Shown here: positions 2,838 to 20,882 of the stretch, in pieces | Numbering within the stretch: the stretch's first letter is position 1 | Layout: every line of letters begins with the position of its first letter | Virus record (IMG/VR): IMGVR_UViG_3300049009_000175 | Location: 1-24,825 of that record | DNA: 24,825 nucleotides | From: a virus | Lineage: Duplodnaviria > Caudoviricetes | Reading direction: 5' to 3' (one strand) | Notes under the pieces: model-generated | What the model saw: only the letters and a program-made list of their open reading frames with translations | Databases searched by the model: none | Told to the model about the DNA's origin: nothing | Translations under genes and position numbers: made by a program

Positions 2838-3037
2838 CACATACATTGAACACTGACAAAACCGTAGCGGTATCCCCAGATCAGTACTGGCTACGCATCG
2901 ACAAAGACACACCCCGAGGTGTCAAGATCCTGCTTCTGGGTATCGGTGGGGTAGCATCCATCGGGCAATGGGACGGGAAGAACAAGTTTTGGACAGGTTG
3001 GGTTCCCCTGCCCAAGAAACCCGACTGGATGATTTAA
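2834..3037 (+). CDS. DUF551-like small phage protein
   Basis: The pattern W..I...P....ILL...G.W......W.PLP..P is typical of DUF551-type domains. Confidence 0.65.
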   Translation: MTHTLNTDKTVAVSPDQYWLRIDKDTPRGVKILLLGIGGVASIGQWDGKNKFWTGWVPLPKKPDWMI

Positions 3038-3603
3038 CGGGCTGCTACACCGTTGATCTTCTCGGCTGTACGCAACCCACCTAAGCTGTGAACGCGCAAA
3101 ACACCCTCTGCAAACCTTACAAGCTCAACTTCTGAGGCATGAGACTTCATTAGGTTTGCAAGATAGGAAATGATTTGTATGTTGTTAGTCGTGTACCCAT
3201 TGCTACTATCAATTCTGTCAACAGATGCCAATGCGTTATTTTTCATGCCTTGATCAAAAGTAAGGAAGCAACCAAAATATGGGCAAAAAATTGACTTACG
3301 CATTAAATCCAATACAAATTTCGGTGTTAGGTCGAATTCCATTCCGTTTACGATAGCTCTTTTACGGCAATCGCTATACGCAGAACTGGCTCTAGCTTTA
3401 ACAGGATCGTTATTCCTTAATTTATCCTTGCACCTCTTTGTTGCCTCAGAGGATTTGCCGGGATTATTTTTATTCCATTCTTTGTTGTACAACCGCTTTT
3501 CAACCTTTATGCACTCTTTGCATTTGTTGACGTAATTTGCCTTTTGGTCTGCCGACCATGTTGAGTCAGTTAGTTCACACTGGCAGTTAATACAATTTTT
3601 CAT
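3034..3603 (-). CDS. HNH-like (His-Me finger) endonuclease, probable free-standing homing endonuclease
   Basis: N-terminal CxxC...CxxC, then CPY...SVDRIDSSNGYTTNNIQIISYLANLMK. Visibly AT-richer than its neighbours; ATGA-coupled to the holin. Confidence 0.75.
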   Translation of the reverse strand: MKNCINCQCELTDSTWSADQKANYVNKCKECIKVEKRLYNKEWNKNNPGKSSEATKRCKDKLRNNDPVKARASSAYSDCRKRAIVNGMEFDLTPKFVLDLMRKSIFCPYFGCFLTFDQGMKNNALASVDRIDSSNGYTTNNIQIISYLANLMKSHASEVELVRFAEGVLRVHSLGGLRTAEKINGVAAR

Positions 3604-4740: not shown

Positions 4741-7404
4741 TTATTGTGCCAGAGCATTGACGGATGCTGGAGCAAGTATTCTGGATACATTGCTTGTAGT
4801 CGCAAGTGCATTGGCTGCACGAGTTTTTGCCAATTGTTTGACTTGCGCACCACCTACAAGTTTAGCAGCACTGGTGGAATTAGAAAGCTCTGTGGCAATT
4901 TCAACGGCCAACTTTTTGTCAATGCGTCCTTCCAATCGACCCATTATCATATTAACGATTGACATGACCTTATTCAGTGGAAATATGTGAGGTTTGGTTT
5001 CGTCACTAAATAACCTCAATGGTGAATCAAGAGCCTTGGCACCTTCCACTGCAAGTTCTTCAAATTTCTCACCTTGTGCTATTCGGGTTTGAATATCTTT
5101 GACCGCTGCTTTAACTTCAGGCAAACCTTGAGTTAATTTGTCAAGATTCTGCTGTGACGCAAGTGCATTCTTTGGGGCAGTTACTCCCAATTTATTACCA
5201 GTTTGCTCGACAAGTTTAGTCAGTTCGGCTAATTCTTTGGCTTTGTCAAATGTAGCTTGTGCCGTTTTAGGGTCATGTGCTTTGAGAACCCGCAGGATGC
5301 CTTGCTCGTTATCGACCAAGTGCTTTAAAGGCTCGGATGCTTTACCTGCATCTTGCATGACACCCCGAGCCAGTGCTGACTTAGCAGGTGCATCCATTCG
5401 AGTCAGTGCTTGGCCTGCCACTTCCGGGTTACTGACAATCGCAGAACGCAACTTATCAGTTTGCTTGAACCCCAGTGTGGTCGATGCTAGGTTAAGTGCT
5501 TCCTCTTCAGCCTTGAACGTCTCTGCAACTTTGCCTGGGATTGCTTTACCTTGAGCAAGCAATGCTTCTTCTGCTGCTGTGATACCCTTGATCTGACCAC
5601 CGATTTGCTCAAGTCGACCGCTCATTTCCATACCCGCATCGTCCAACGCTCCAAGTTGGCGAGCGTAGTCGGACATAAACTTGGCATGTGCTTCAGGTGT
5701 TGCTGCTTTGGCACCACTCAAAACTTGTTGTCGATACAAATCTTCAACACCTGTTTTAAGCGTCTGCATTGCAGCAGGGTCTTGCTTGAACACTTTCAAG
5801 AATTGAACCGTATTACCCTCATCAGCCATTACTTTGTTGACAACATCAGTAGGTCGCAGCATGGGTTCGTTTAACGTACTGACGCGACGTAAGTTTGCTA
5901 CCTGACCAGTTCGATGAGTGCCAAGAATTTGTTCTTTGAAGATGTCATCCGCTTTCCCGTACAGCTTAAACGCTTCTTCAGGGACACCCTTTTTGATAGC
6001 ATCATTCAATGCTAAGTCAAGCTCTTGGAGATTGGCACGAGCGTAGTTTGCTTCGCCAGTGTTCAATCCTTTGAGCCTGTTTATGTCAATGCTGATGGCT
6101 TTACTGATATCGGATGCTTCTTGGAACGTAACAGGTTTTGCGGATTGCAGGGTTTTAACTGGTACGCCTTGCACCATTGTTTCTACTTGTCGAGGAGCAT
6201 ATCGTTCCAACAATGCCGACGCATTGGGAGCCATTTCGGTTCCTTTAATCTTAGTCAGCACCTCTGCAAGTTGTCCTTTAGCAGTGGATGCCAATCCATT
6301 CAGATTGATGGTGGCGTCTGGTGCAGCCTTGAATGCAGCGTTGTACGCTGGTGTGACTACTTTTTTCTGAGTTGCTTCTTGAATAGCCTTGTTTGCAGCG
6401 GTTAGCGCTTGACCAGTTTCGAGTTGGCTTACGTTTGCAATTCCACCTTCAACACCTTGACGTTGTGCGGCAAGTGCTGCTTCAGCGGCTTGCTGTTCTG
6501 CTGTCAATTGACCAGTCAGTGCGGTTCTCTGTCCTTGCAGATTTGCTGCTTCACCCGCCAGTGCTTGTTTTACTGCACGACGTGGTGCAGTTGGTGACGC
6601 TGTAGCGATAGGCAGGTTTTGCTGTGTCAAAGCATTGACGTTTTGCGATGCTGCTGCAAGTTGATTGGCTTGGGTAGCCTTCAGGGTCTCATCTAACTCC
6701 CGATACAGTGTCTGAGTAGCGGTAGACGAAAGTGATGCTTTTTTGACAAGTGCCGCCAATCCTTGTGCATCGGTAAGAGCAGCAGCTTCTTGGATAGTCT
6801 TACCTTGATCGAGTAAGTCTTTAATCTTATTCATCAAAACAGGATCATTGTTTAACGATTCCGCTATGCTTGATGACTTTAGTCGTGACGGTGTTAATAC
6901 ATCAGCCACGCCGCTTCCCATACCTTTTACAACTTTACTGACATATGGTGCCGCAAGTCCAATTCCTTTTCCAATTACTTGACCACCCATTTCCATAGTG
7001 GCACCTTCGGCAACATCACCACCTACGCGCCGCGCAGTTTGTGATAAGCTCTCAGGTTTGTTTGTTCCACCTACTAATCGCATCAACCCCTTAGCACCAG
7101 CATAACCTGCCGCAGAACCAGCAACTGTTCCCAATGGGCCTACACCTGAACCCAACGCGCCACCACCTGCCATACCAATCGCTTCGACTGCTGGTGCGAT
7201 GAACGCTGCCTGCTCGGCACGAGGTTTTTGAGATAACGTCATTCCCATTTCAAATGGTGTAGACAATAGGTCAAACATTCCTCTTTTCGGTTGTGTGCTT
7301 CCAGTAGTAGCCGAAAGCATTTTTAAACCAGCATCGCTCATGCCGCTTAAGTTACCCCCATGCAATGCTTTTAGGTCGGAATCGCTCAGTTGACTCAAGT
7401 CCAT
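4741..7404 (-). CDS. Large DNA ejection (internal virion) protein, P22 gp16-position
   Basis: 887 aa, Ala/Gln/Lys-rich and helical, with a Gly-rich hydrophobic stretch (GMAGGGALGSGVGPLGTVAGSAAGYAG). Third gene of the ejection trio by synteny. Confidence 0.7.
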   Translation of the reverse strand: MDLSQLSDSDLKALHGGNLSGMSDAGLKMLSATTGSTQPKRGMFDLLSTPFEMGMTLSQKPRAEQAAFIAPAVEAIGMAGGGALGSGVGPLGTVAGSAAGYAGAKGLMRLVGGTNKPESLSQTARRVGGDVAEGATMEMGGQVIGKGIGLAAPYVSKVVKGMGSGVADVLTPSRLKSSSIAESLNNDPVLMNKIKDLLDQGKTIQEAAALTDAQGLAALVKKASLSSTATQTLYRELDETLKATQANQLAAASQNVNALTQQNLPIATASPTAPRRAVKQALAGEAANLQGQRTALTGQLTAEQQAAEAALAAQRQGVEGGIANVSQLETGQALTAANKAIQEATQKKVVTPAYNAAFKAAPDATINLNGLASTAKGQLAEVLTKIKGTEMAPNASALLERYAPRQVETMVQGVPVKTLQSAKPVTFQEASDISKAISIDINRLKGLNTGEANYARANLQELDLALNDAIKKGVPEEAFKLYGKADDIFKEQILGTHRTGQVANLRRVSTLNEPMLRPTDVVNKVMADEGNTVQFLKVFKQDPAAMQTLKTGVEDLYRQQVLSGAKAATPEAHAKFMSDYARQLGALDDAGMEMSGRLEQIGGQIKGITAAEEALLAQGKAIPGKVAETFKAEEEALNLASTTLGFKQTDKLRSAIVSNPEVAGQALTRMDAPAKSALARGVMQDAGKASEPLKHLVDNEQGILRVLKAHDPKTAQATFDKAKELAELTKLVEQTGNKLGVTAPKNALASQQNLDKLTQGLPEVKAAVKDIQTRIAQGEKFEELAVEGAKALDSPLRLFSDETKPHIFPLNKVMSIVNMIMGRLEGRIDKKLAVEIATELSNSTSAAKLVGGAQVKQLAKTRAANALATTSNVSRILAPASVNALAQ

Positions 7405-7406
7405 AA

Positions 7407-8759
7407 TTAAAGACCTCGTTTTTTCATTTCGGCAGCGATTGCATCTAAGCTTGGCATTACTCCACCAGCGGCGGGCGCTGCACTTGCAGGAGGTGGGACT
7501 AACCCAACTCTTACCATGCGATCCTTAGCAGCAGTCCAACCGGCTAACCGTTCTGCTGCTGTTCGTCTTGGGTTTGCAACGTCGCCCAATGCACTGACAA
7601 TAAATTCACGGTCGGTATTAGAGATACCTGCACCCAACTTACCACCAGCGAGATCTGTAGCGATTTGGTTAGCGGTTCCTTCAAGAGCAGCAATAGCGGC
7701 TTTACCTGGTGTGGTATACCCAATGAAACCCAACAAACCAGTGGTTCCTGCTTGCAATCCACCACTGGTGGATTTTTCAATTAACGTCGATATGTCATCT
7801 TTACCTGTAACGGGATCATATCCAGCCGATTTCAATGCTTTAACCGTAGCCTGTTGATCTTTCTGGGTTTGTATTTCAGGCAATGGTGTAAATTTACCAG
7901 TGGGTGTTGCTGCTGTTGGGCGACTAATGAACCCTCCAGAAATAGGATCAAACACTGGACGATTTGCCAATTCAAGCGCTTGCTGTTGCCCAGTTTGAGC
8001 GACATTTAAGTTACCTTGGGATACTTTAAGTTGTCCCTGAGAAATCTTGTTTTGCTCAACTTGGTAAGGTGTCATGCCAGCAGCTTGACTCGGCATCACT
8101 TCTTGCTTAAACGTGGGGCTATTTGGGTTCTTATCGATAAATTTAATGCTACCGTCCCCCAGCTTCACTTCAATAGGATCGGGTGCTACGAGCTTCATAG
8201 CAGCAATACCTTCAGGGTGAGATGACACATAGCTTTGAATTAAATCGATTCGTTGCTTAGGGTCAATTACTTGGGAAAACTGTGTACGTAATGCTTTCGT
8301 ATCAATCCCTTGAGCATCAAGCATGGAGAATGCCGTATTCAGTCCAGTATCACTAGGGTCTTTTAAAGCAGTGATCAACCCACTACCCAGTGCCTTCATT
8401 TGCTGTGCTTGCACTTCACCTTTGACCTTAGCAAGAGCAGCAGGTTGTGCTTCAATTTCACCTTGTAGCTTTTTACCAGTAAGTCCAGCATTCTGTGCCT
8501 CATTGATTGCCTTAAGTGCCGCAACACCAGGTGTCCCAAATTGGGTCAATCCTTCAGGCTTGTACTCCGGACTACGCATGTAGTTCAGCATACCCTCGTT
8601 AAGCGTATCCGCCCGTTGAGCAGAAGATAACTGATACTTAGCCAAAGCATTTTGAGTTGCACCAGCATTTAATTGCTGCATCTTGGCATAGCTAGCGAAC
8701 GGGTCAACTGGTGCCTGAAACTGGGCACCTTGCGCGATAAGGGAATTTAGATCAGCCAT
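7407..8759 (-). CDS. DNA ejection protein, P22 gp20-position
   Basis: 450 aa, Ala/Gln-rich; middle gene of the ejection trio; AGGT RBS. Confidence 0.65.
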   Translation of the reverse strand: MADLNSLIAQGAQFQAPVDPFASYAKMQQLNAGATQNALAKYQLSSAQRADTLNEGMLNYMRSPEYKPEGLTQFGTPGVAALKAINEAQNAGLTGKKLQGEIEAQPAALAKVKGEVQAQQMKALGSGLITALKDPSDTGLNTAFSMLDAQGIDTKALRTQFSQVIDPKQRIDLIQSYVSSHPEGIAAMKLVAPDPIEVKLGDGSIKFIDKNPNSPTFKQEVMPSQAAGMTPYQVEQNKISQGQLKVSQGNLNVAQTGQQQALELANRPVFDPISGGFISRPTAATPTGKFTPLPEIQTQKDQQATVKALKSAGYDPVTGKDDISTLIEKSTSGGLQAGTTGLLGFIGYTTPGKAAIAALEGTANQIATDLAGGKLGAGISNTDREFIVSALGDVANPRRTAAERLAGWTAAKDRMVRVGLVPPPASAAPAAGGVMPSLDAIAAEMKKRGL

Positions 8760-8767
8760 GATTTACC

Positions 8768-9532
8768 TTATGGGTACATTGTCGATGTGGGTGGCCCCAT
8801 CGGGTTAGATGATTGTTGGTTGTAGTAATTGTTCAGGTTCTGCTGACCCATATACTGATTAAAGTTCTGCTGGTTCTGATAACTACTAGCCATTGTACCG
8901 AGAGCATTGTTTATGGTGTTACCTTGACCCATCGCGCCAGCGGCCATTGATTGACCAGCAGCATTGATCGCATTGGCACCGGCATTACCGTAGTTGCCAG
9001 CAGCAGCAGCCTGATTGTTTACCGCTGCCTGACCCGACTGCATCAGGCTACCCAATGGGTTTAACTGGTTAGCACGATTGGTTTGATAACGGTTGAATGC
9101 GTTGCTGTACTCTTGCGACCCCATGTCTTGACCATATCGAGTTGCAGCCTTGAGAGCACCACCGGAGATTAGTCCACCACGAGCAGCAGCTTGTCGATCA
9201 AGAGCTTTCTGACCCTCCGACACACGGAATGCGTAGCCTGGGTCTTGCTGGAAGTCTTGCATGGAGAAGTCTTGAGCATACTTGCCGTAGCCAGCAGCAC
9301 CTGCGTTTCCACCAAGACCCATCAGTTCCATCAGTCGATTCTGACCTGTTAGACCTGCTTGTGCGTATGGTTGGTTCCGAGCAACCTGCTCGTCGTACAT
9401 CTGCTTCTGAAGGTCTTGACCACGAGCAGCGGCATCCGCTTGCATACTGGCGGCAGATCGTTGACTAGATGAACTCATTAGTCCACCGACAAGTCCCGCA
9501 CCCGCTATCGTTCCCGTTACTGGATCAGGCAT
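8768..9532 (-). CDS. DNA ejection protein, P22 gp7-like
   Basis: Gly/Ala hydrophobic N-terminus (MPDPVTGTIAGAGLVGGLMS), then A/Q/N/G-rich body with DPGYAFR...AAARGGLISGGALKA. Start reassigned to ATG 9532, with GGGAG RBS. Confidence 0.8.
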   Translation of the reverse strand: MPDPVTGTIAGAGLVGGLMSSSSQRSAASMQADAAARGQDLQKQMYDEQVARNQPYAQAGLTGQNRLMELMGLGGNAGAAGYGKYAQDFSMQDFQQDPGYAFRVSEGQKALDRQAAARGGLISGGALKAATRYGQDMGSQEYSNAFNRYQTNRANQLNPLGSLMQSGQAAVNNQAAAAGNYGNAGANAINAAGQSMAAGAMGQGNTINNALGTMASSYQNQQNFNQYMGQQNLNNYYNQQSSNPMGPPTSTMYP

Positions 9533-9995
9533 GTTCATTCTCCCACTCATCAAAAGTTTCAAAAGCGTAAAACTCGCGGATTTCGCGGGACACTTTACGC
9601 ATATGTTCAAATCCGCCAATCAAGAAGGCAGTGGCGATGTGAAGTTCAATTCCCATGTTGCGAATATGAAAAGCAAGATTTCTCAAATGCTTCTTGTCGC
9701 TCTTGCACATTTCATTTGCATCATGGAACCCATTTATTGATGCCATGATCAATGGTTGGTAATAGGCATAGTTTGCCACAAACCAAGGGTTAGCAGGAAG
9801 AACAAACATCAGTGATGTGAACACCCGATTTACATGGGTGTCACTGATAGGATTGTCTTTGTCGATCAAGTCATCCCAAAGCTCAACGGCATCAAAGAAG
9901 CAATTCAGAAAGTCAATGGCGTTTTGATTACCAAGGCACCAGTCACGCTTATTAATCTGGTTTTGCTCTTGCCAGTCTTGGGACATTACGGGCAT
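9525..9995 (-). CDS. Small protein with DDxxD motif (isoprenoid synthase/prenyltransferase-like), in the P22 gp14 position
   Basis: ELWDDLIDKD motif at 9855-9884. Start reassigned to ATG 9995 (GGGGTG RBS). Overlaps the gp7-like start by 8 nt. CDS is well supported; function is inferred. Confidence 0.6.
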   Translation of the reverse strand: MPVMSQDWQEQNQINKRDWCLGNQNAIDFLNCFFDAVELWDDLIDKDNPISDTHVNRVFTSLMFVLPANPWFVANYAYYQPLIMASINGFHDANEMCKSDKKHLRNLAFHIRNMGIELHIATAFLIGGFEHMRKVSREIREFYAFETFDEWENEHA

Positions 9996-11365: not shown

Positions 11366-12118
11366 TTAGATGATCTGATTCATCGTGATGATAACGCCGG
11401 GTGATTGCGGCACCAATGGGGTAGTGGTTGCAGGAATCGTAAAAATCTGGGTTGTACCAGTTCGAGACAACCAGTACAACTCGATGTACTGCCCTGCTGT
11501 CACCGCCTGATAGATGTTCATGGCAATAATGATACTGCCCGATAGTCCACCGTGCTTCTTGGGAATCGTGACAGTACTCGCACTGTTTCCGACGTTCGTG
11601 CCCACGAGTTTGAACCAGATGGTTACGTCGTCATCACTGGTAGTATCAGCATTCTGCAACTGCACACTGATTTGGACGTTGTACACACCGGCATTGGTGA
11701 AATAAATACGGGAAGCCGGTGATCCAAGATCAACAAGATTATGGTAGTCGGATGTATCAAAAGTAACAGCAATTGGTGTATTAGCTACACCCGTCTGGGT
11801 TGTCCGAGCATCAAATGATCCGTACGCCACATCAATCCACTGAGGCATGTTGGTGCCATCCGTACCCAAGTATGACGGTGATGCGATACCAGGTGCGTGC
11901 AGCTTGGCAAGCGTGTTGGCAGTAGGAGCGTACAGCAGATCACCGGCAGCGTATGTTGTGATACCTGTTCCACCACTCGACACTGGTACAACACCATCAG
12001 CCAACCCGATATACTCGTACAGGTTGCTGAAAAACCTGAACCAAGGGCGCGAGAACAATGATGTGTTCGGCTCAGTGATCGCAACCCGATTGGCAGGGAT
12101 TTGGGTATCGTTAAGCAT
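11366..12118 (-). CDS. Tail needle-position (gp26-like) protein with C-terminal beta-rich knob
   Basis: Follows the gp10-like gene; contains VPVSSGGTG fibre motif and a C1q/BclA-like pattern (IYFTNAGVYNVQISVQL...GQYIELYW). Start is either ATG 12118 or GTG 12127. Confidence 0.6.
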   Translation of the reverse strand: MLNDTQIPANRVAITEPNTSLFSRPWFRFFSNLYEYIGLADGVVPVSSGGTGITTYAAGDLLYAPTANTLAKLHAPGIASPSYLGTDGTNMPQWIDVAYGSFDARTTQTGVANTPIAVTFDTSDYHNLVDLGSPASRIYFTNAGVYNVQISVQLQNADTTSDDDVTIWFKLVGTNVGNSASTVTIPKKHGGLSGSIIIAMNIYQAVTAGQYIELYWLSRTGTTQIFTIPATTTPLVPQSPGVIITMNQII

Positions 12119-13628
12119 TGGTGCCACTGATTAAGAGTTCGGCACCCACGATGGTGATCTTCACGGGATCGGTGCCTGATATCTCATACACCCGATCACG
12201 CAGCTTCTGGGTCATACCAAGCCTACGCCAGATCATCCGTTTGAAATACTCACCTGTGGCACCCATAGACAACCAGTGTTCATTACTCCACGTGTGACCA
12301 CCATCATCAGACCATCGCAGCATGACCTGAGCTTGGTTCAGTGCGCTTATGTCAGTCTCTTGGATAAGTGCATCACCCGACTCAGTAATGATCAACTCAC
12401 CTGATTGAGTCAATAGACCTGTACCAAGATCAATGTTGATCACAGCACCCGTCTCACAGTCGAGTTGGAGACTGTGGTGCGCAGTACGCTTCAGGTTGTT
12501 CTGTCCCGTGGGCAGAGCACGCCATGACCGCAGCCACTTTTGGATACGGTCGTGGTCGGAATACTTGTCCATATCAAAAGCGTACAAGTTACCGTTCTGG
12601 TAATCCCCTACGACATTAGCATTGCTGAAGTATGTCTGGCAGTTGCTGCGATGGCGGGTGAACTGACCGTTAGACCAGCCTGCACGCTCATGCCATGCTT
12701 GAGTGGACACATCGTAGACCCATGTGGCGTTAGCCGATGGGAAGGACAGCACATAGAACGAGTGGCCGTCTTGCTGGTACGTGTAGGCCACAGCATCTGA
12801 GATGTCAGCGTATTGCTGGATCTGCCACTCAATTGCGTGGGTACTGATACGCACGCCAGAATAACCATTGGATCGGTACACGATGCCTTTACCACGACGG
12901 TCAGCACCCAGCCAAAACAGGCCGTTATCCAGCTTGGCTACAGAGAACGTAGCAGCACAGCCAATCTCGTTAAAAGCGCCCTGAATGCGTTGTAGAGGGA
13001 AGTCAACATTACCCGAGTCGTACCAGACCTCAATCGAATTGGTTCCAAACAGCCACACCTCAGAGTGATCCACGATTGACGATACCAAGCCATCGGGGTC
13101 ACCCTCGGCACTGGCGAAATCCAACGGATCAACGGACAGCGGGTCATTGAGTGCTGTAACCCAGACCAACTGACTATTGGGTTCAATATAAACAAAGTAC
13201 CCATCCAGATAGGACACGGTTAGCGCACCTGTGAAGTCAGGGTCAGTAACCTGAGCAAACGCATTCGTGAGCGTGTTGTAGACGTACATCGGGCCATTGC
13301 AAGCAATGACGACTTGTGTCCCGTTGTCTGACATAGACACATGTGTAGCAGCGTCAGTGACAAGCCCCAATTGAGTCACCACATACGATGGGTCAACCTT
13401 GTACAAGTACCGACCTGACACCACGAACAAATTGACCCCTACTGTGCGTATGCCACGAATGGGGCCGGTGCCCACAGTCTGAAGCAGACGAAGCCCTGGG
13501 GCACGGTTCAAGAAGCCAGGCTCCTTACCCCCCTCGGGCACGGCTTCTGGGAACAAGTTGATCATGCGGTTATCCGCAGCATTGACGCTACGGGCTACAT
13601 ATGATGAACCCAGAATTGGTGACTTCAT
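12111..13628 (-). CDS. Tail hub / packaged DNA stabilization protein, P22 gp10-like
   Basis: 505 aa beta-propeller-like sequence (MSDNGTQ, YLDGYFV, FASAEGDPD, WSDDGGHTWS, WRRLG); synteny. Confidence 0.88.
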   Translation of the reverse strand: MKSPILGSSYVARSVNAADNRMINLFPEAVPEGGKEPGFLNRAPGLRLLQTVGTGPIRGIRTVGVNLFVVSGRYLYKVDPSYVVTQLGLVTDAATHVSMSDNGTQVVIACNGPMYVYNTLTNAFAQVTDPDFTGALTVSYLDGYFVYIEPNSQLVWVTALNDPLSVDPLDFASAEGDPDGLVSSIVDHSEVWLFGTNSIEVWYDSGNVDFPLQRIQGAFNEIGCAATFSVAKLDNGLFWLGADRRGKGIVYRSNGYSGVRISTHAIEWQIQQYADISDAVAYTYQQDGHSFYVLSFPSANATWVYDVSTQAWHERAGWSNGQFTRHRSNCQTYFSNANVVGDYQNGNLYAFDMDKYSDHDRIQKWLRSWRALPTGQNNLKRTAHHSLQLDCETGAVINIDLGTGLLTQSGELIITESGDALIQETDISALNQAQVMLRWSDDGGHTWSNEHWLSMGATGEYFKRMIWRRLGMTQKLRDRVYEISGTDPVKITIVGAELLISGTNA

Positions 13629-17452: not shown

Positions 17453-18919
17453 TTAAAAGACTTCATAAAACCCGCTTACATTTATGGTGTAGCCATTGGC
17501 ACCTGGGTAAGTGCCATCATAAAACTGGAGGCTGCAAACAGATGAGGCTGTATCAAGAAACCCAAGTACGCCCTTCCCTGTTAACGCACGTTCTTTTCCA
17601 TAAAAGTTTTGACCAATTGTTCCTACCGACGTTACTGGAACTGAAAACTGAAGTGCTGCTGATGCCGTGCCGTTTGTTGTTATTACAATTTGAACTTTTA
17701 CATAAATAATCTTTCCACGGCGCAAGTAATAGCCCGTAGAAGATGCTGATGTAAGTGTTCCAGAAACCGCCGAAAGTGTTGGTGTATATGGCACCCAAGG
17801 ATCACCAGCAAATTGGTCTACCCCGCGCTGAACGTGAATAGACCCGCCAATTTCTACAGTTGGAACTGGCGTTGAGTTTCCACTGTCAAGATAATAAATA
17901 GCATGGTCAATAGAAGCAAATGCAAATGCGGGGGAACCTGACGTGCCAAAGACGTGTATTGGTACGTTTCCGGTGTAAAACCAGAAGTGTTCATTACGAC
18001 AAGATACCGCCGCTGAAGCCCCACCCAAGCAAGTAACGCCTTCTGTTGCAGAGCCTCCACTAACCATGAATGCGCGTATAAATCGCCAATCATTATTGTC
18101 AGTGTTTATCAAATAGATGGATTGACTGTTTTTTAATTGGCAATCGACCCAGAATTCATTCATTGAGACGTTTGCAATGCCATCACCAGTGCAGTTTAAC
18201 GATACAGCCGAGGTTTCAACCTGGCGCCCCTTAAGATAAATTTTGTTTCGTTGAACATCCTTAGCTTCACCAAGCGACGCAACAACTGTTAAATCAAGAC
18301 CGGTTGTTGCGGCATTTGCAATGGCAACATCAATAAAACAATCCCGACAACTGACAAGTCTCATCCCGACATTTATGGTTCCACTATTGCAGTTAATACC
18401 AATGCCGGAAAACACCACATTGCTAACACGCTGATTGCTAACACCAGAGACGGCAGAGATAAGCACAAGGGGGCCAACAGTGCCATTTGCGCCAATCCAC
18501 TTCAGCACCGTTCCGGTCATTAGGGTTCCGGTATCGTGGATGTCACTACCTTCCCCAAAAATTTGTACATTGCTGACATTGATTGTCGGGAGCACTGCGC
18601 TCACGGCATATGTTTTTGCATCCATTCGGTGGGGGGTGCCAGGATTAGCAATTGCGGAATTAAAAAAGTTTGTAACAGCCGCAGTGTCATCCGTGACCCC
18701 ATCGCCGACCGCCCCAAAGTCCTTGACACTCACGGACTCGCGCAACTTTGCCTGCACCGTAGTCGCCACAGCACCAGTACCTGCTGGCAGGTAGCCCACA
18801 GCAGCATTAATATTACTCAACGTCGTCTGGGCTGTGACACCAGCCTGGACGATAGGTACAAGCTCCTCACCCGTAAGAGCAGATGAGTTGGGAAGTTGCG
18901 AAATCTTTTTGTCAGCCAT
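17453..18919 (-). CDS. Tailspike/fibre with pectate-lyase-3-type beta-helix (putative depolymerase/receptor-binding protein)
   Basis: MADKKISQLP N-terminus, GTGAVATTVQAKLRE linker, VSVKDFGAVGDGVTDDTAA motif, C-terminal WVPYTPTL...GYYLRRGKIIYV domain. Confidence 0.85.
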   Translation of the reverse strand: MADKKISQLPNSSALTGEELVPIVQAGVTAQTTLSNINAAVGYLPAGTGAVATTVQAKLRESVSVKDFGAVGDGVTDDTAAVTNFFNSAIANPGTPHRMDAKTYAVSAVLPTINVSNVQIFGEGSDIHDTGTLMTGTVLKWIGANGTVGPLVLISAVSGVSNQRVSNVVFSGIGINCNSGTINVGMRLVSCRDCFIDVAIANAATTGLDLTVVASLGEAKDVQRNKIYLKGRQVETSAVSLNCTGDGIANVSMNEFWVDCQLKNSQSIYLINTDNNDWRFIRAFMVSGGSATEGVTCLGGASAAVSCRNEHFWFYTGNVPIHVFGTSGSPAFAFASIDHAIYYLDSGNSTPVPTVEIGGSIHVQRGVDQFAGDPWVPYTPTLSAVSGTLTSASSTGYYLRRGKIIYVKVQIVITTNGTASAALQFSVPVTSVGTIGQNFYGKERALTGKGVLGFLDTASSVCSLQFYDGTYPGANGYTINVSGFYEVF

Positions 18920-19015
18920 GATCTACCTTAAGTTATACAAGTGGTTCAGCAACCATCACCAGCCCCATACGCGCCATAGCCACAAAAGGCTCCTGTGTAC
19001 TCACGTCCATTATTT

Positions 19016-19222
19016 TTAGACAGCCACGTCGGGTACAGCGGGGAACTGCGCATTGAACGCTTCACGGGCAGCAGTCATGCCGTCTTCAGGTGTAGCTGTA
19101 CCGTACTGAGACTGATACGACTTTGCGGCCATATTCGCAACCATGTTGGCATAACCTTCATTGGTATCAATAACGGTAGTCGGTTGCACGTAGTCGGAGA
19201 CAATAGTTACGGTGTAGATCAT
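19016..19222 (-). CDS. Hypothetical protein (68 aa)
   Basis: GAGGA RBS; ATGA-coupled to the upstream small ORF. Confidence 0.7.
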   Translation of the reverse strand: MIYTVTIVSDYVQPTTVIDTNEGYANMVANMAAKSYQSQYGTATPEDGMTAAREAFNAQFPAVPDVAV

Positions 19223-19368
19223 TTGGATTCCTCTTGATTGATTGATTCTTGGACAACGGTGGCAATGTCGTATGCCGGTTTGGCGACTTGCAGACCACCT
19301 GCTTTGACCGCAATGTCAAGCAGTTGCAGGAGGGTTTGGGCTTGTTCTTTGGTGAGTTCGATTTGCAT
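19219..19368 (-). CDS. Small helical protein (49 aa), possible fibre chaperone; absent from the ORF track
   Basis: MQIELTKEQAQTLLQLLDIAVKAGGLQVAKPAYDIATVVQESINQEESK*; AGGA RBS; starts 1 nt after the fibre stop; ATGA overlap downstream. Confidence 0.8.
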   Translation of the reverse strand: MQIELTKEQAQTLLQLLDIAVKAGGLQVAKPAYDIATVVQESINQEESK

Positions 19369-19369
19369 G

Positions 19370-20017
19370 TTAGGTTCCTACGTTGACCACGCCAGCGTTA
19401 TTCCAGAGAATACCGGGCCCTGGGTTTGATGTAGGCAAACCAGAAATAAGCAAATTAGCGGCAGAACCCGTGCCAGCATTTTCAGGCTTGATTGAGCAGT
19501 TACCTGCTGCAAAACCAATGCTTAGTCGGGTGTAGTTACTTGCGTCCGTGTACGTGTTGTACAACCGGAACGTCTGCGCTGCGGTGCTATTGCGCTGGGC
19601 TAGGGTGTTGGCTGCATCTGCATATAAACTAAACCCATTTGCCTGTGGGTTTGATACATTACTGGTTACGCAAATAGGTCGCCCAAAACTATTTAACCCA
19701 GCTTTTCCGAGATAAAAAGATGCTCCGCCAACTGATATTCCAACTTCTGGATTGCTACCAGCATTTCCAAGTGATACGCCAGTGTTAGTTGAAACGGCTT
19801 GATAAATAGCAAGTGGTGACCCATTGGATGCATCTACCGCACTGGATAATGCTCCTGCTTTGGTAATATTAAACTTACTAACCCCACCCACTTGAAAGTC
19901 AGCCAGCAGCGAAGCAGCCGCACTAGCGGTATCGGTGACGTTGAGCTTGAGGCCGGTGAAGGTAGTGCCTGCTGCGTTCCACGTAGTGGTAAGGTTTGAA
20001 ATAGGTACGTTTGCCAT
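19370..20017 (-). CDS. Short fibre-like virion protein
   Basis: MANVPISNL N-terminus; G/A/S/T/N-rich; C-terminal GLPTSNPGPGILWNNAGVVNV motif typical of fibre modules. Confidence 0.65.
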   Translation of the reverse strand: MANVPISNLTTTWNAAGTTFTGLKLNVTDTASAAASLLADFQVGGVSKFNITKAGALSSAVDASNGSPLAIYQAVSTNTGVSLGNAGSNPEVGISVGGASFYLGKAGLNSFGRPICVTSNVSNPQANGFSLYADAANTLAQRNSTAAQTFRLYNTYTDASNYTRLSIGFAAGNCSIKPENAGTGSAANLLISGLPTSNPGPGILWNNAGVVNVGT

Positions 20018-20519: not shown

Positions 20520-20882
20520 TTATGCCAAAAATTTCAGCTTGTACAGGGTGGAAAGATACAGTGCCACGACTTCATCAATCAGATTGTGCAGTGCTGTATC
20601 TTTATGGTCAACTATCTCATATCGAGCATCTTCGATCTCTTTTAACTGATCGGTCAGAAACTCAATAATGTTGGTTGTCTTCTTAGCCGACATGAGACTG
20701 ATAGGCCCAATTAAACCATGACGGCCCTGATAAGCCTCAGAAAAACTATCAGCCAGACCCACGATCTCATCGTAGAACGTGTTCAGAGCACTGTGTTTAG
20801 CAAAGCTCCTAGTGTTCAAGTGCACGGAATGGGCCACATCCCGTGCCAAAAAGAGCATCCCTACAAAGTCATTCACTTTCAT
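20520..20882 (-). CDS. Dps/ferritin-like four-helix protein (DUF5856-like)
   Basis: AHSVHLNTRSFAKHSALNTFYDEIVGLADSFSEAYQG resembles the Dps pattern H-W-N...H......Y.......D...E; ATGA-coupled to the portal. Confidence 0.7.
   Translation of the reverse strand: MKVNDFVGMLFLARDVAHSVHLNTRSFAKHSALNTFYDEIVGLADSFSEAYQGRHGLIGPISLMSAKKTTNIIEFLTDQLKEIEDARYEIVDHKDTALHNLIDEVVALYLSTLYKLKFLA

Follow-up and report, generated by a model that had tools for sequence, protein, structure and literature searches.

What is the function of the small gene that lies directly before the first ejection-protein gene of short-tailed phages? To our knowledge, this gene (gp13 in T7, gp14 in P22) has long been without a mechanism. 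In the window, the 24,825-nucleotide stretch of viral DNA analysed here, the position is occupied by a gene with a DDxxD motif. An earlier note on this DNA had proposed that its product is a half-size prenyltransferase which replaces an acyltransferase and lipidates the ejection protein.

The DDxxD gene and its surroundings

The window is a fragment of a P22-type podovirus containing terminase, portal, scaffold, coat, head-closure, tail-fibre, lysis and three ejection genes, and the completeness of the virus record is estimated at 67%. The gene for a P22 gp10-like head-closure protein (12111..13628, minus strand) marks the P22-type module. Tailspike-like genes (17453-20017, minus strand) are located between portal and scaffold, an order unusual for such a module. 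Between the portal and the tailspike lies a gene (20520-20882, minus strand) resembling DUF5856/phrog_858, annotated as 'starvation-inducible regulator', and an Endonuclease VII/HNH-like gene (3034-3603, minus strand) follows the holin gene and converges on opposite-strand genes with a 4-nt overlap.

The DDxxD gene (9525..9995, minus strand) encodes 156 amino acids, including the motif WDDLIDKD (residues 40-47; 9855..9878, minus strand), and overlaps the next gene by 8 nt (9525..9532, minus strand), all as originally described. The same frame is open from 10049; ATG 9995 was chosen as the start because homologs are mostly 150-159 residues long with the N-terminus MP[VI]M and because a Shine-Dalgarno-like GGGGTGAT is present just 5' of this codon. 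Substitutions relative to six close loci fall mostly at third codon positions (for example 15/8/63), so the frame is under purifying selection.

The overlapping gene (8768..9532, minus strand) starts at ATG 9532, with GGGAG 7 nt upstream. Its product of 254 residues begins with MPDPV and matches phrog_598 'DNA ejection' (E 2e-36), which identifies it as the P22 gp7-like first ejection protein and the candidate substrate. It contains 0 Trp and 0 Cys, in agreement with the earlier reading. The second (7407..8759, minus strand; 450 residues, one non-conserved Trp) and third (4741..7404, minus strand; 887 residues, no Trp or Cys) ejection proteins are assigned these roles from synteny, and the second has no family match in the libraries scanned.

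Conservation and distribution of the family

The DDxxD protein matches phrog_21390, a family of unknown function (E 2e-26), and no family is assigned to it by Pfam or NCBIfam. A profile search (E<=1e-3) collected 1,543 clusters at 50% identity. Conservation was analysed in 146 aligned sequences, taken mostly from the best 150 of these clusters together with close homologs and leaving out long fusions and fragments. In this alignment, with a mean column identity of about 29%, D41 and D45 are invariant and D42 and D47 are kept in 99% and 97% of the sequences, respectively; the aspartates on which the earlier note had made its reading depend are thus retained, far above chance expectation. Position 112 is Arg in 92% and Lys in 7%, and the four aspartates together with R/K112 are kept in 139/146. 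Position 146 is E, D or Q in 138/146.

The family is widespread, mainly in uncultured short-tailed phages. Two queries of 50,697 isolate phage records returned a single carrier, Achromobacter phage CF418P1. Bacterial samples yielded the gene in 3/401, 10/151 and 4/201 genomes, and the 16 different bacterial genomes carry it either in prophage ejection modules (12) or beside adhesin genes (4).

Predicted fold

The AF2 model of the DDxxD protein is confident (pLDDT 96.9, pTM 0.89) and all-helical. The Asp motif closes helix 24-45 and a break is present at 112-113, so that the helical pattern with DDxxD at a helix end, noticed earlier from the letters, is reproduced in the model. Comparison of the model with 48,161 chains using VIA placed chains with a trans-isoprenyl-diphosphate-synthase fold at all ranks from 1 to 26 (132-154 residues aligned, rmsd 3.5-4.6 A), with Z-scores of 6.0-9.2, a range (6-9) that, by the tool's own warning, helical bundles in general may reach. 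The best match is 5H9D_D, a chain of 188 residues (Z 9.2, rmsd 3.5, 137 aligned). The first unrelated chain appears at rank 27 with 91 residues aligned. The alignments cover about residues 30-250 of full synthases and end approximately where the second Asp motif begins (~200-250). The fold is therefore predicted to lack the last synthase helices and to stop about where that motif would start; it exceeds half a domain, and the description of a half-size enzyme does not hold.

This structural agreement was not matched by the other comparisons. Foldseek gave no match in the PDB at E<=1e-3 and listed no synthase. Profile comparison with 32 synthases by hhalign was not significant (probability 1%, E 0.053, score 18.5 against a shuffled maximum of 17.7), and its alignment was placed on the second Asp motif (SARM). 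None of the 146 members matches PF00348, and PDB sequence searches returned nothing significant (PbSS E 0.35; MoeN5 E 2.2). The ESM Atlas offers a lead only: of its four named neighbours, with scores no higher than 0.76-0.78, two are clusters of polyprenyl/heptaprenyl synthases. Overall, we regard an isoprenoid-synthase-like fold as probable.

Putative catalytic site

Canonical chain-elongating synthases were considered and rejected as relatives in function. A second [DN]DxxD motif (SARM) is not conserved, any such motif being found in only 11/146 sequences, and the motifs which we take to bind IPP are nearly absent: RR after the first Asp motif (FARM) is found in 1/146 and GKxxR in 0/146. Since the IPP-binding motifs are missing, chain elongation is unlikely.

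A closer parallel is offered by StheQ, a ComQ homolog whose pyrophosphate site, according to the accessible part of the report, consists of D85/D89/D91, K174 and Q212 and contains one Mg, bound by the FARM only (10.64898/2026.08.29.745113). D41/D45/D47 share the +0/+4/+6 spacing of D85/D89/D91. R112 (codon 9660..9662, minus strand) lies at the 111/114 helix break and is a putative diphosphate-binding residue equivalent to K174, and E146 (codon 9558..9560, minus strand) would lie near the SARM start of full synthases; both residues fit by spacing, not by superposition. As a residue set, D41/D45/D47, R112 and E146 plausibly resemble the one-metal site of StheQ. The pseudo-SARM NDxxx is not conserved near the C-terminus of the family.

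Linkage to the first ejection gene

The earlier note had expected homologs to be linked to ejection genes, and this is what the loci display. A gp7-like gene lies directly downstream in 78/80 close viral loci, the other two ending too soon. Where enough DNA is present, a co-oriented gene begins -20..+60 nt from the DDxxD gene in 142/145 loci (two of the 142 are adhesin loci), and the 8-nt overlap is found in 86 loci. The slot is kept across 23-90% identity while the gene upstream differs freely between loci. A scan of 47 partners assigned 31 to four families (phrog_4287, 20; phrog_598, 5; phrog_8003, 5; phrog_611, a family of unknown function, 1), and 16 gave no match.

The N-termini of 128 partners are diverse, comprising 53 P-type, 17 SG, 6 Cys and 52 leader or other starts. 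Leaders of about 20 residues followed by Gly runs are seen on ejection proteins of loci L108, L110, L118, L119, L132 and L150, and a similar leader is present on two different ejection-like proteins, encoded upstream in L118 and downstream in L119. These leaders resemble a RiPP leader or the cleaved leader of P22 gp7.

Characterised trans-IDS-like peptide prenyltransferases all target Trp, as far as the accessible text of PMC13290415 covers them. The possibility that ejection proteins 1-3 offer a conserved Trp as acceptor was rejected here: 39/54 close gp7 partners are free of Trp, no Trp is conserved in either later ejection protein, and the Trp columns of the second protein reach <=26%. An acceptor in these proteins would therefore be new.

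An exchangeable slot before gp7

Searching from the gp7 side recovered 84 loci, of which 12 have a DDxxD gene in the slot, 59 have another gene or none, and 13 include too little DNA. Among 42 slot proteins scanned, five matched SET, five Cupin_2 and four GNAT; one had a weak cNMP match only and 27 had no match. Three of the five SET matches are long enough, judged by eye, for a cupin-SET fusion. Most of the unmatched slot proteins carry a cupin-like motif by regular expression (28/59 tree rows), a pattern which, like the start assignments, makes a few visible errors. In loci L267-L350, the gene directly upstream of the gp7-like gene is variously a cupin, SET, cupin-SET-length or GNAT gene, most often a cupin, and each type is accompanied by its own characteristic N-terminus of the ejection protein.

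The accessible part of Hardies et al. (PMC4819975) describes the occupant of this slot, T7 gp13 (IVP-A) or P22 gp14, as an acetyltransferase-like non-virion protein and notes one alternative, phiRIO-1 gp39. The latter was considered as a DDxxD homolog and rejected, comparison revealing no relation. The proposal that the DDxxD gene replaces an acyltransferase is right in that DDxxD and GNAT genes alternate in the same slot, but cupin and SET occupants together outnumber GNAT, and the DDxxD gene is therefore better regarded as one of several interchangeable enzymes. Mutual exclusivity with GNAT, for which the earlier note had suggested a survey, does not hold strictly: in 8/209 loci the gene immediately upstream of the DDxxD gene is a GNAT or resembles one (one confirmed by PHROG, two homologs of it and five our own reading without a library match). 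The proteins of the window that were scanned gave no GNAT match.

A tree of the gp7 core was built without the N-terminus, after 21/84 loci had been dropped for short context or want of the anchor motif, and four more before the tree. On this tree the DDxxD state changes 10 times for 11 rows (shuffled mean 10.2), and at least seven of the changes are forced by strongly supported branches. The gp7 start M-[PAS]-[DEN]-x occurs in 10/11 DDxxD loci against 0/52 others, an association resting on seven independent pairs (sign test p 0.016-0.031). Judged by eye, an aromatic residue at position 3-4 is typical of cupin loci and the start MSGWVAG of SET loci. The slot enzyme and the gp7 N-terminus are thus exchanged repeatedly, as a cassette.

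The predicted covariation with the gp7 N-terminus is thus present, but its meaning is less certain. Residue 3 of gp7 is fixed by the stop codon of the upstream gene in 41/41 of the 8-nt overlaps, and the Asp of M-P-D-P was accordingly rejected as covariation evidence. P4 lies beyond the overlap and is retained in 43/44, encoded by CCA in 40/43. With residue 3 forced and P4 written by a single codon in nearly all cases, the correlation may reflect hitchhiking. An MPEP start persists in three loci with a different overlap.

Genes for further enzymes were seen inside ejection modules: a PP-loop/PAPS-reductase-like gene (L211:7226-8080, by eye), a sulfotransferase-like gene (L122:5140-5655, Pfam E 6e-4) and a possible B12/radical-SAM gene of 349 residues (L349, upstream of 2459, by eye).

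Fusions, duplications and adhesin-linked copies

A SAM methyltransferase is joined to the DDxxD protein in two members (P0086 and P0123), once at the N- and once at the C-terminus, and the same rare methyltransferase is encoded directly upstream in at least two loci (L101:4244-4918 and L265:4001-4663). The top PDB match to its sequence is BezA (37.9 bits), tied with unrelated methyltransferases (37.6 bits). BezA is a GPP C6-methyltransferase, according to the accessible part of PMC10881772. The DDxxD domain is tandemly duplicated in two members, and the duplications seen in P0100, P0180 and L130:4452-5361 hint at function as a dimer.

Four bacterial, non-prophage copies (L212:1322-1852; L246; L251:1483-2034; L261:1483-1992) directly follow genes of giant, type-I-secreted RTX-repeat adhesins, with no ejection gene; the adhesin in genome G081 is 3381 residues long. 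The flanking genes are presumably LapG/LapD-like. On unstarred branches, these copies cluster with those of phages in which the partner begins with MC or MGC.

Proposed function and alternatives

We propose that, during assembly, the DDxxD protein uses Mg2+ and a host prenyl diphosphate to prenylate the first ejection protein in its N-terminal region, and we assign this reading a probability of roughly 40%. D41/D45/D47, R112 and E146 would form one Mg-diphosphate site where ionisation of the prenyl donor takes place as in ComQ and StheQ. The open side of the truncated fold may admit a protein substrate. The acceptor would not be Trp but the amine of the N-terminus, or a hydroxyl or aromatic group close to it, and the prenyl group would be placed on the gp7-like N-terminal region.

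Acetyl, methyl and, in the case of the cupins, probably oxygenase chemistries occupy the same slot, which makes a membrane anchor doubtful as the shared purpose. Capping or tagging of the N-terminus, for packaging or for protection from proteases or host sensing, is more likely than a lipid anchor. The N-terminus of mature P22 gp7 is free and can be sequenced, as stated in the accessible part of PMC8402733; the slot enzyme of P22 therefore need not block it. It is conceivable, and we put this forward tentatively, that podoviruses possess an interchangeable writer cassette (acetyl, methyl, cupin or prenyl) which is swapped together with its peptide. The DDxxD protein would then be a minimal, open-sided prenyl writer acting at a non-Trp site, sometimes with a methylated donor, and co-opted beside bacterial adhesins.

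A prenyl-diphosphate enzyme with another product, which acts on a small isoprenoid by synthesis, cyclisation or hydrolysis, or else modifies a different virion or host molecule, would account equally for the fold and the motif. The lack of a conserved Trp or Cys acceptor, the resemblance of the methyltransferase partner to prenyl-diphosphate methyltransferases and the adhesin-linked copies without an ejection gene all fit such an enzyme. We nevertheless think it unlikely, because the gene hardly ever changes its place and overlap in front of first-ejection genes, which belong to four families, and because the alternative occupants of the slot have typical protein-modifying folds. The same enzyme folds speak against a non-catalytic assembly chaperone, in which a synthase-derived cavity would hold the hydrophobic N-terminal helix of the ejection protein and the aspartates would bind a metal or ligand structurally. 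Moreover, conservation is highest at four Asp and one Arg, a pattern typical of a catalytic site and not of a hydrophobic surface. In favour of a chaperone are the best structural match, a small heptaprenyl-synthase chain, and T7 IVP-A, which is needed for morphogenesis yet absent from the virion and is substituted in phiRIO-1 by an unrelated alternative of 96 residues (PMC4819975, accessible part); on balance we judge this role improbable to a similar degree.

The synthase resemblance itself could be remote or convergent, the protein being a modifier that uses a different diphosphate-activated donor. The insignificant Foldseek and profile comparisons and the rmsd values (3.5-4.6 A) are consistent with this. 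VIA ranks 1-26, near full-length and from one superfamily before the drop to unrelated chains, are difficult to reconcile with it, and we consider such a donor distinctly unlikely. Least probable, in our opinion very much so, is that the slot is a hot spot where accessory genes recombine, the DDxxD gene being functionally unlinked to the ejection protein. Many unrelated genes do pass through the slot, they move frequently, and hitchhiking could explain the N-terminal correlation. Against this, the DDxxD gene has kept the slot at 23-90% identity and beside four partner families while its upstream neighbour changes.

Exact-word searches of the open-access literature found no description of the DDxxD family, of phage virion prenylation or of cupin or SET genes in this slot, and the accessible parts of two ejection-protein papers (PMC8954989; 10.64898/2026.05.18.726046) make no mention of acylation. 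The alternation of GNAT, SET, cupin and synthase-fold genes, with an N-terminus that travels along, suggests that the ejection protein is chemically modified, which mass spectrometry can test directly. Should the prenyl step be real, gp7-like proteins would be the first prenylated phage structural proteins found in the open-access literature searched. Trans-IDS-like enzymes would then gain a new class of acceptor, and peptide lipidation a 156-residue scaffold.

Comparison with known systems

The DDxxD protein shares with ComQ, StheQ and PalQ a predicted all-alpha fold, a FARM with DxxxDxD spacing, a basic residue that would correspond to the one on helix G, the absence of a true SARM and a gene that adjoins the presumed substrate gene. 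It differs in that it has only 156 residues, stops approximately at the pseudo-SARM, lacks NDxxx and has no detected sequence similarity to them. The partner of a ComQ-type enzyme is a short peptide with an acceptor Trp, whereas the DDxxD partner is a virion protein of 200-1300 residues which, in the gp7 clade, is usually Trp-free. The protein thus belongs to neither the chain-elongating nor the ComQ family, and plausibly works like ComQ.

MoeN5 is similar in structure (VIA Z 7.0, 150 aligned) and weakly similar in sequence at the DD motifs (E 2.2), but has two Asp motifs where the DDxxD protein has one. We take MoeN5 to be the moenomycin prenyltransferase, acting on a glycolipid and not on a protein. 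The best structural match, 5H9D_D, is comparably small; it is presumably the non-catalytic small subunit of heptaprenyl diphosphate synthase, which has no DDxxD and requires a large subunit. The aspartates of the DDxxD protein are, in contrast, invariant, and no gene for a large subunit is adjacent.

The gene corresponds in position to T7 gp13 and P22 gp14, each likewise small and immediately followed by the first ejection gene. The DDxxD model is all-helical without strands, unlike the GNAT fold predicted for those two proteins, and among the relatives analysed here cupin and SET proteins are further occupants of the same slot. The DDxxD family is real and widespread; it is probably a novel form within the isoprenoid-synthase superfamily, with putative catalytic activity, and resides in a swappable modifier slot.
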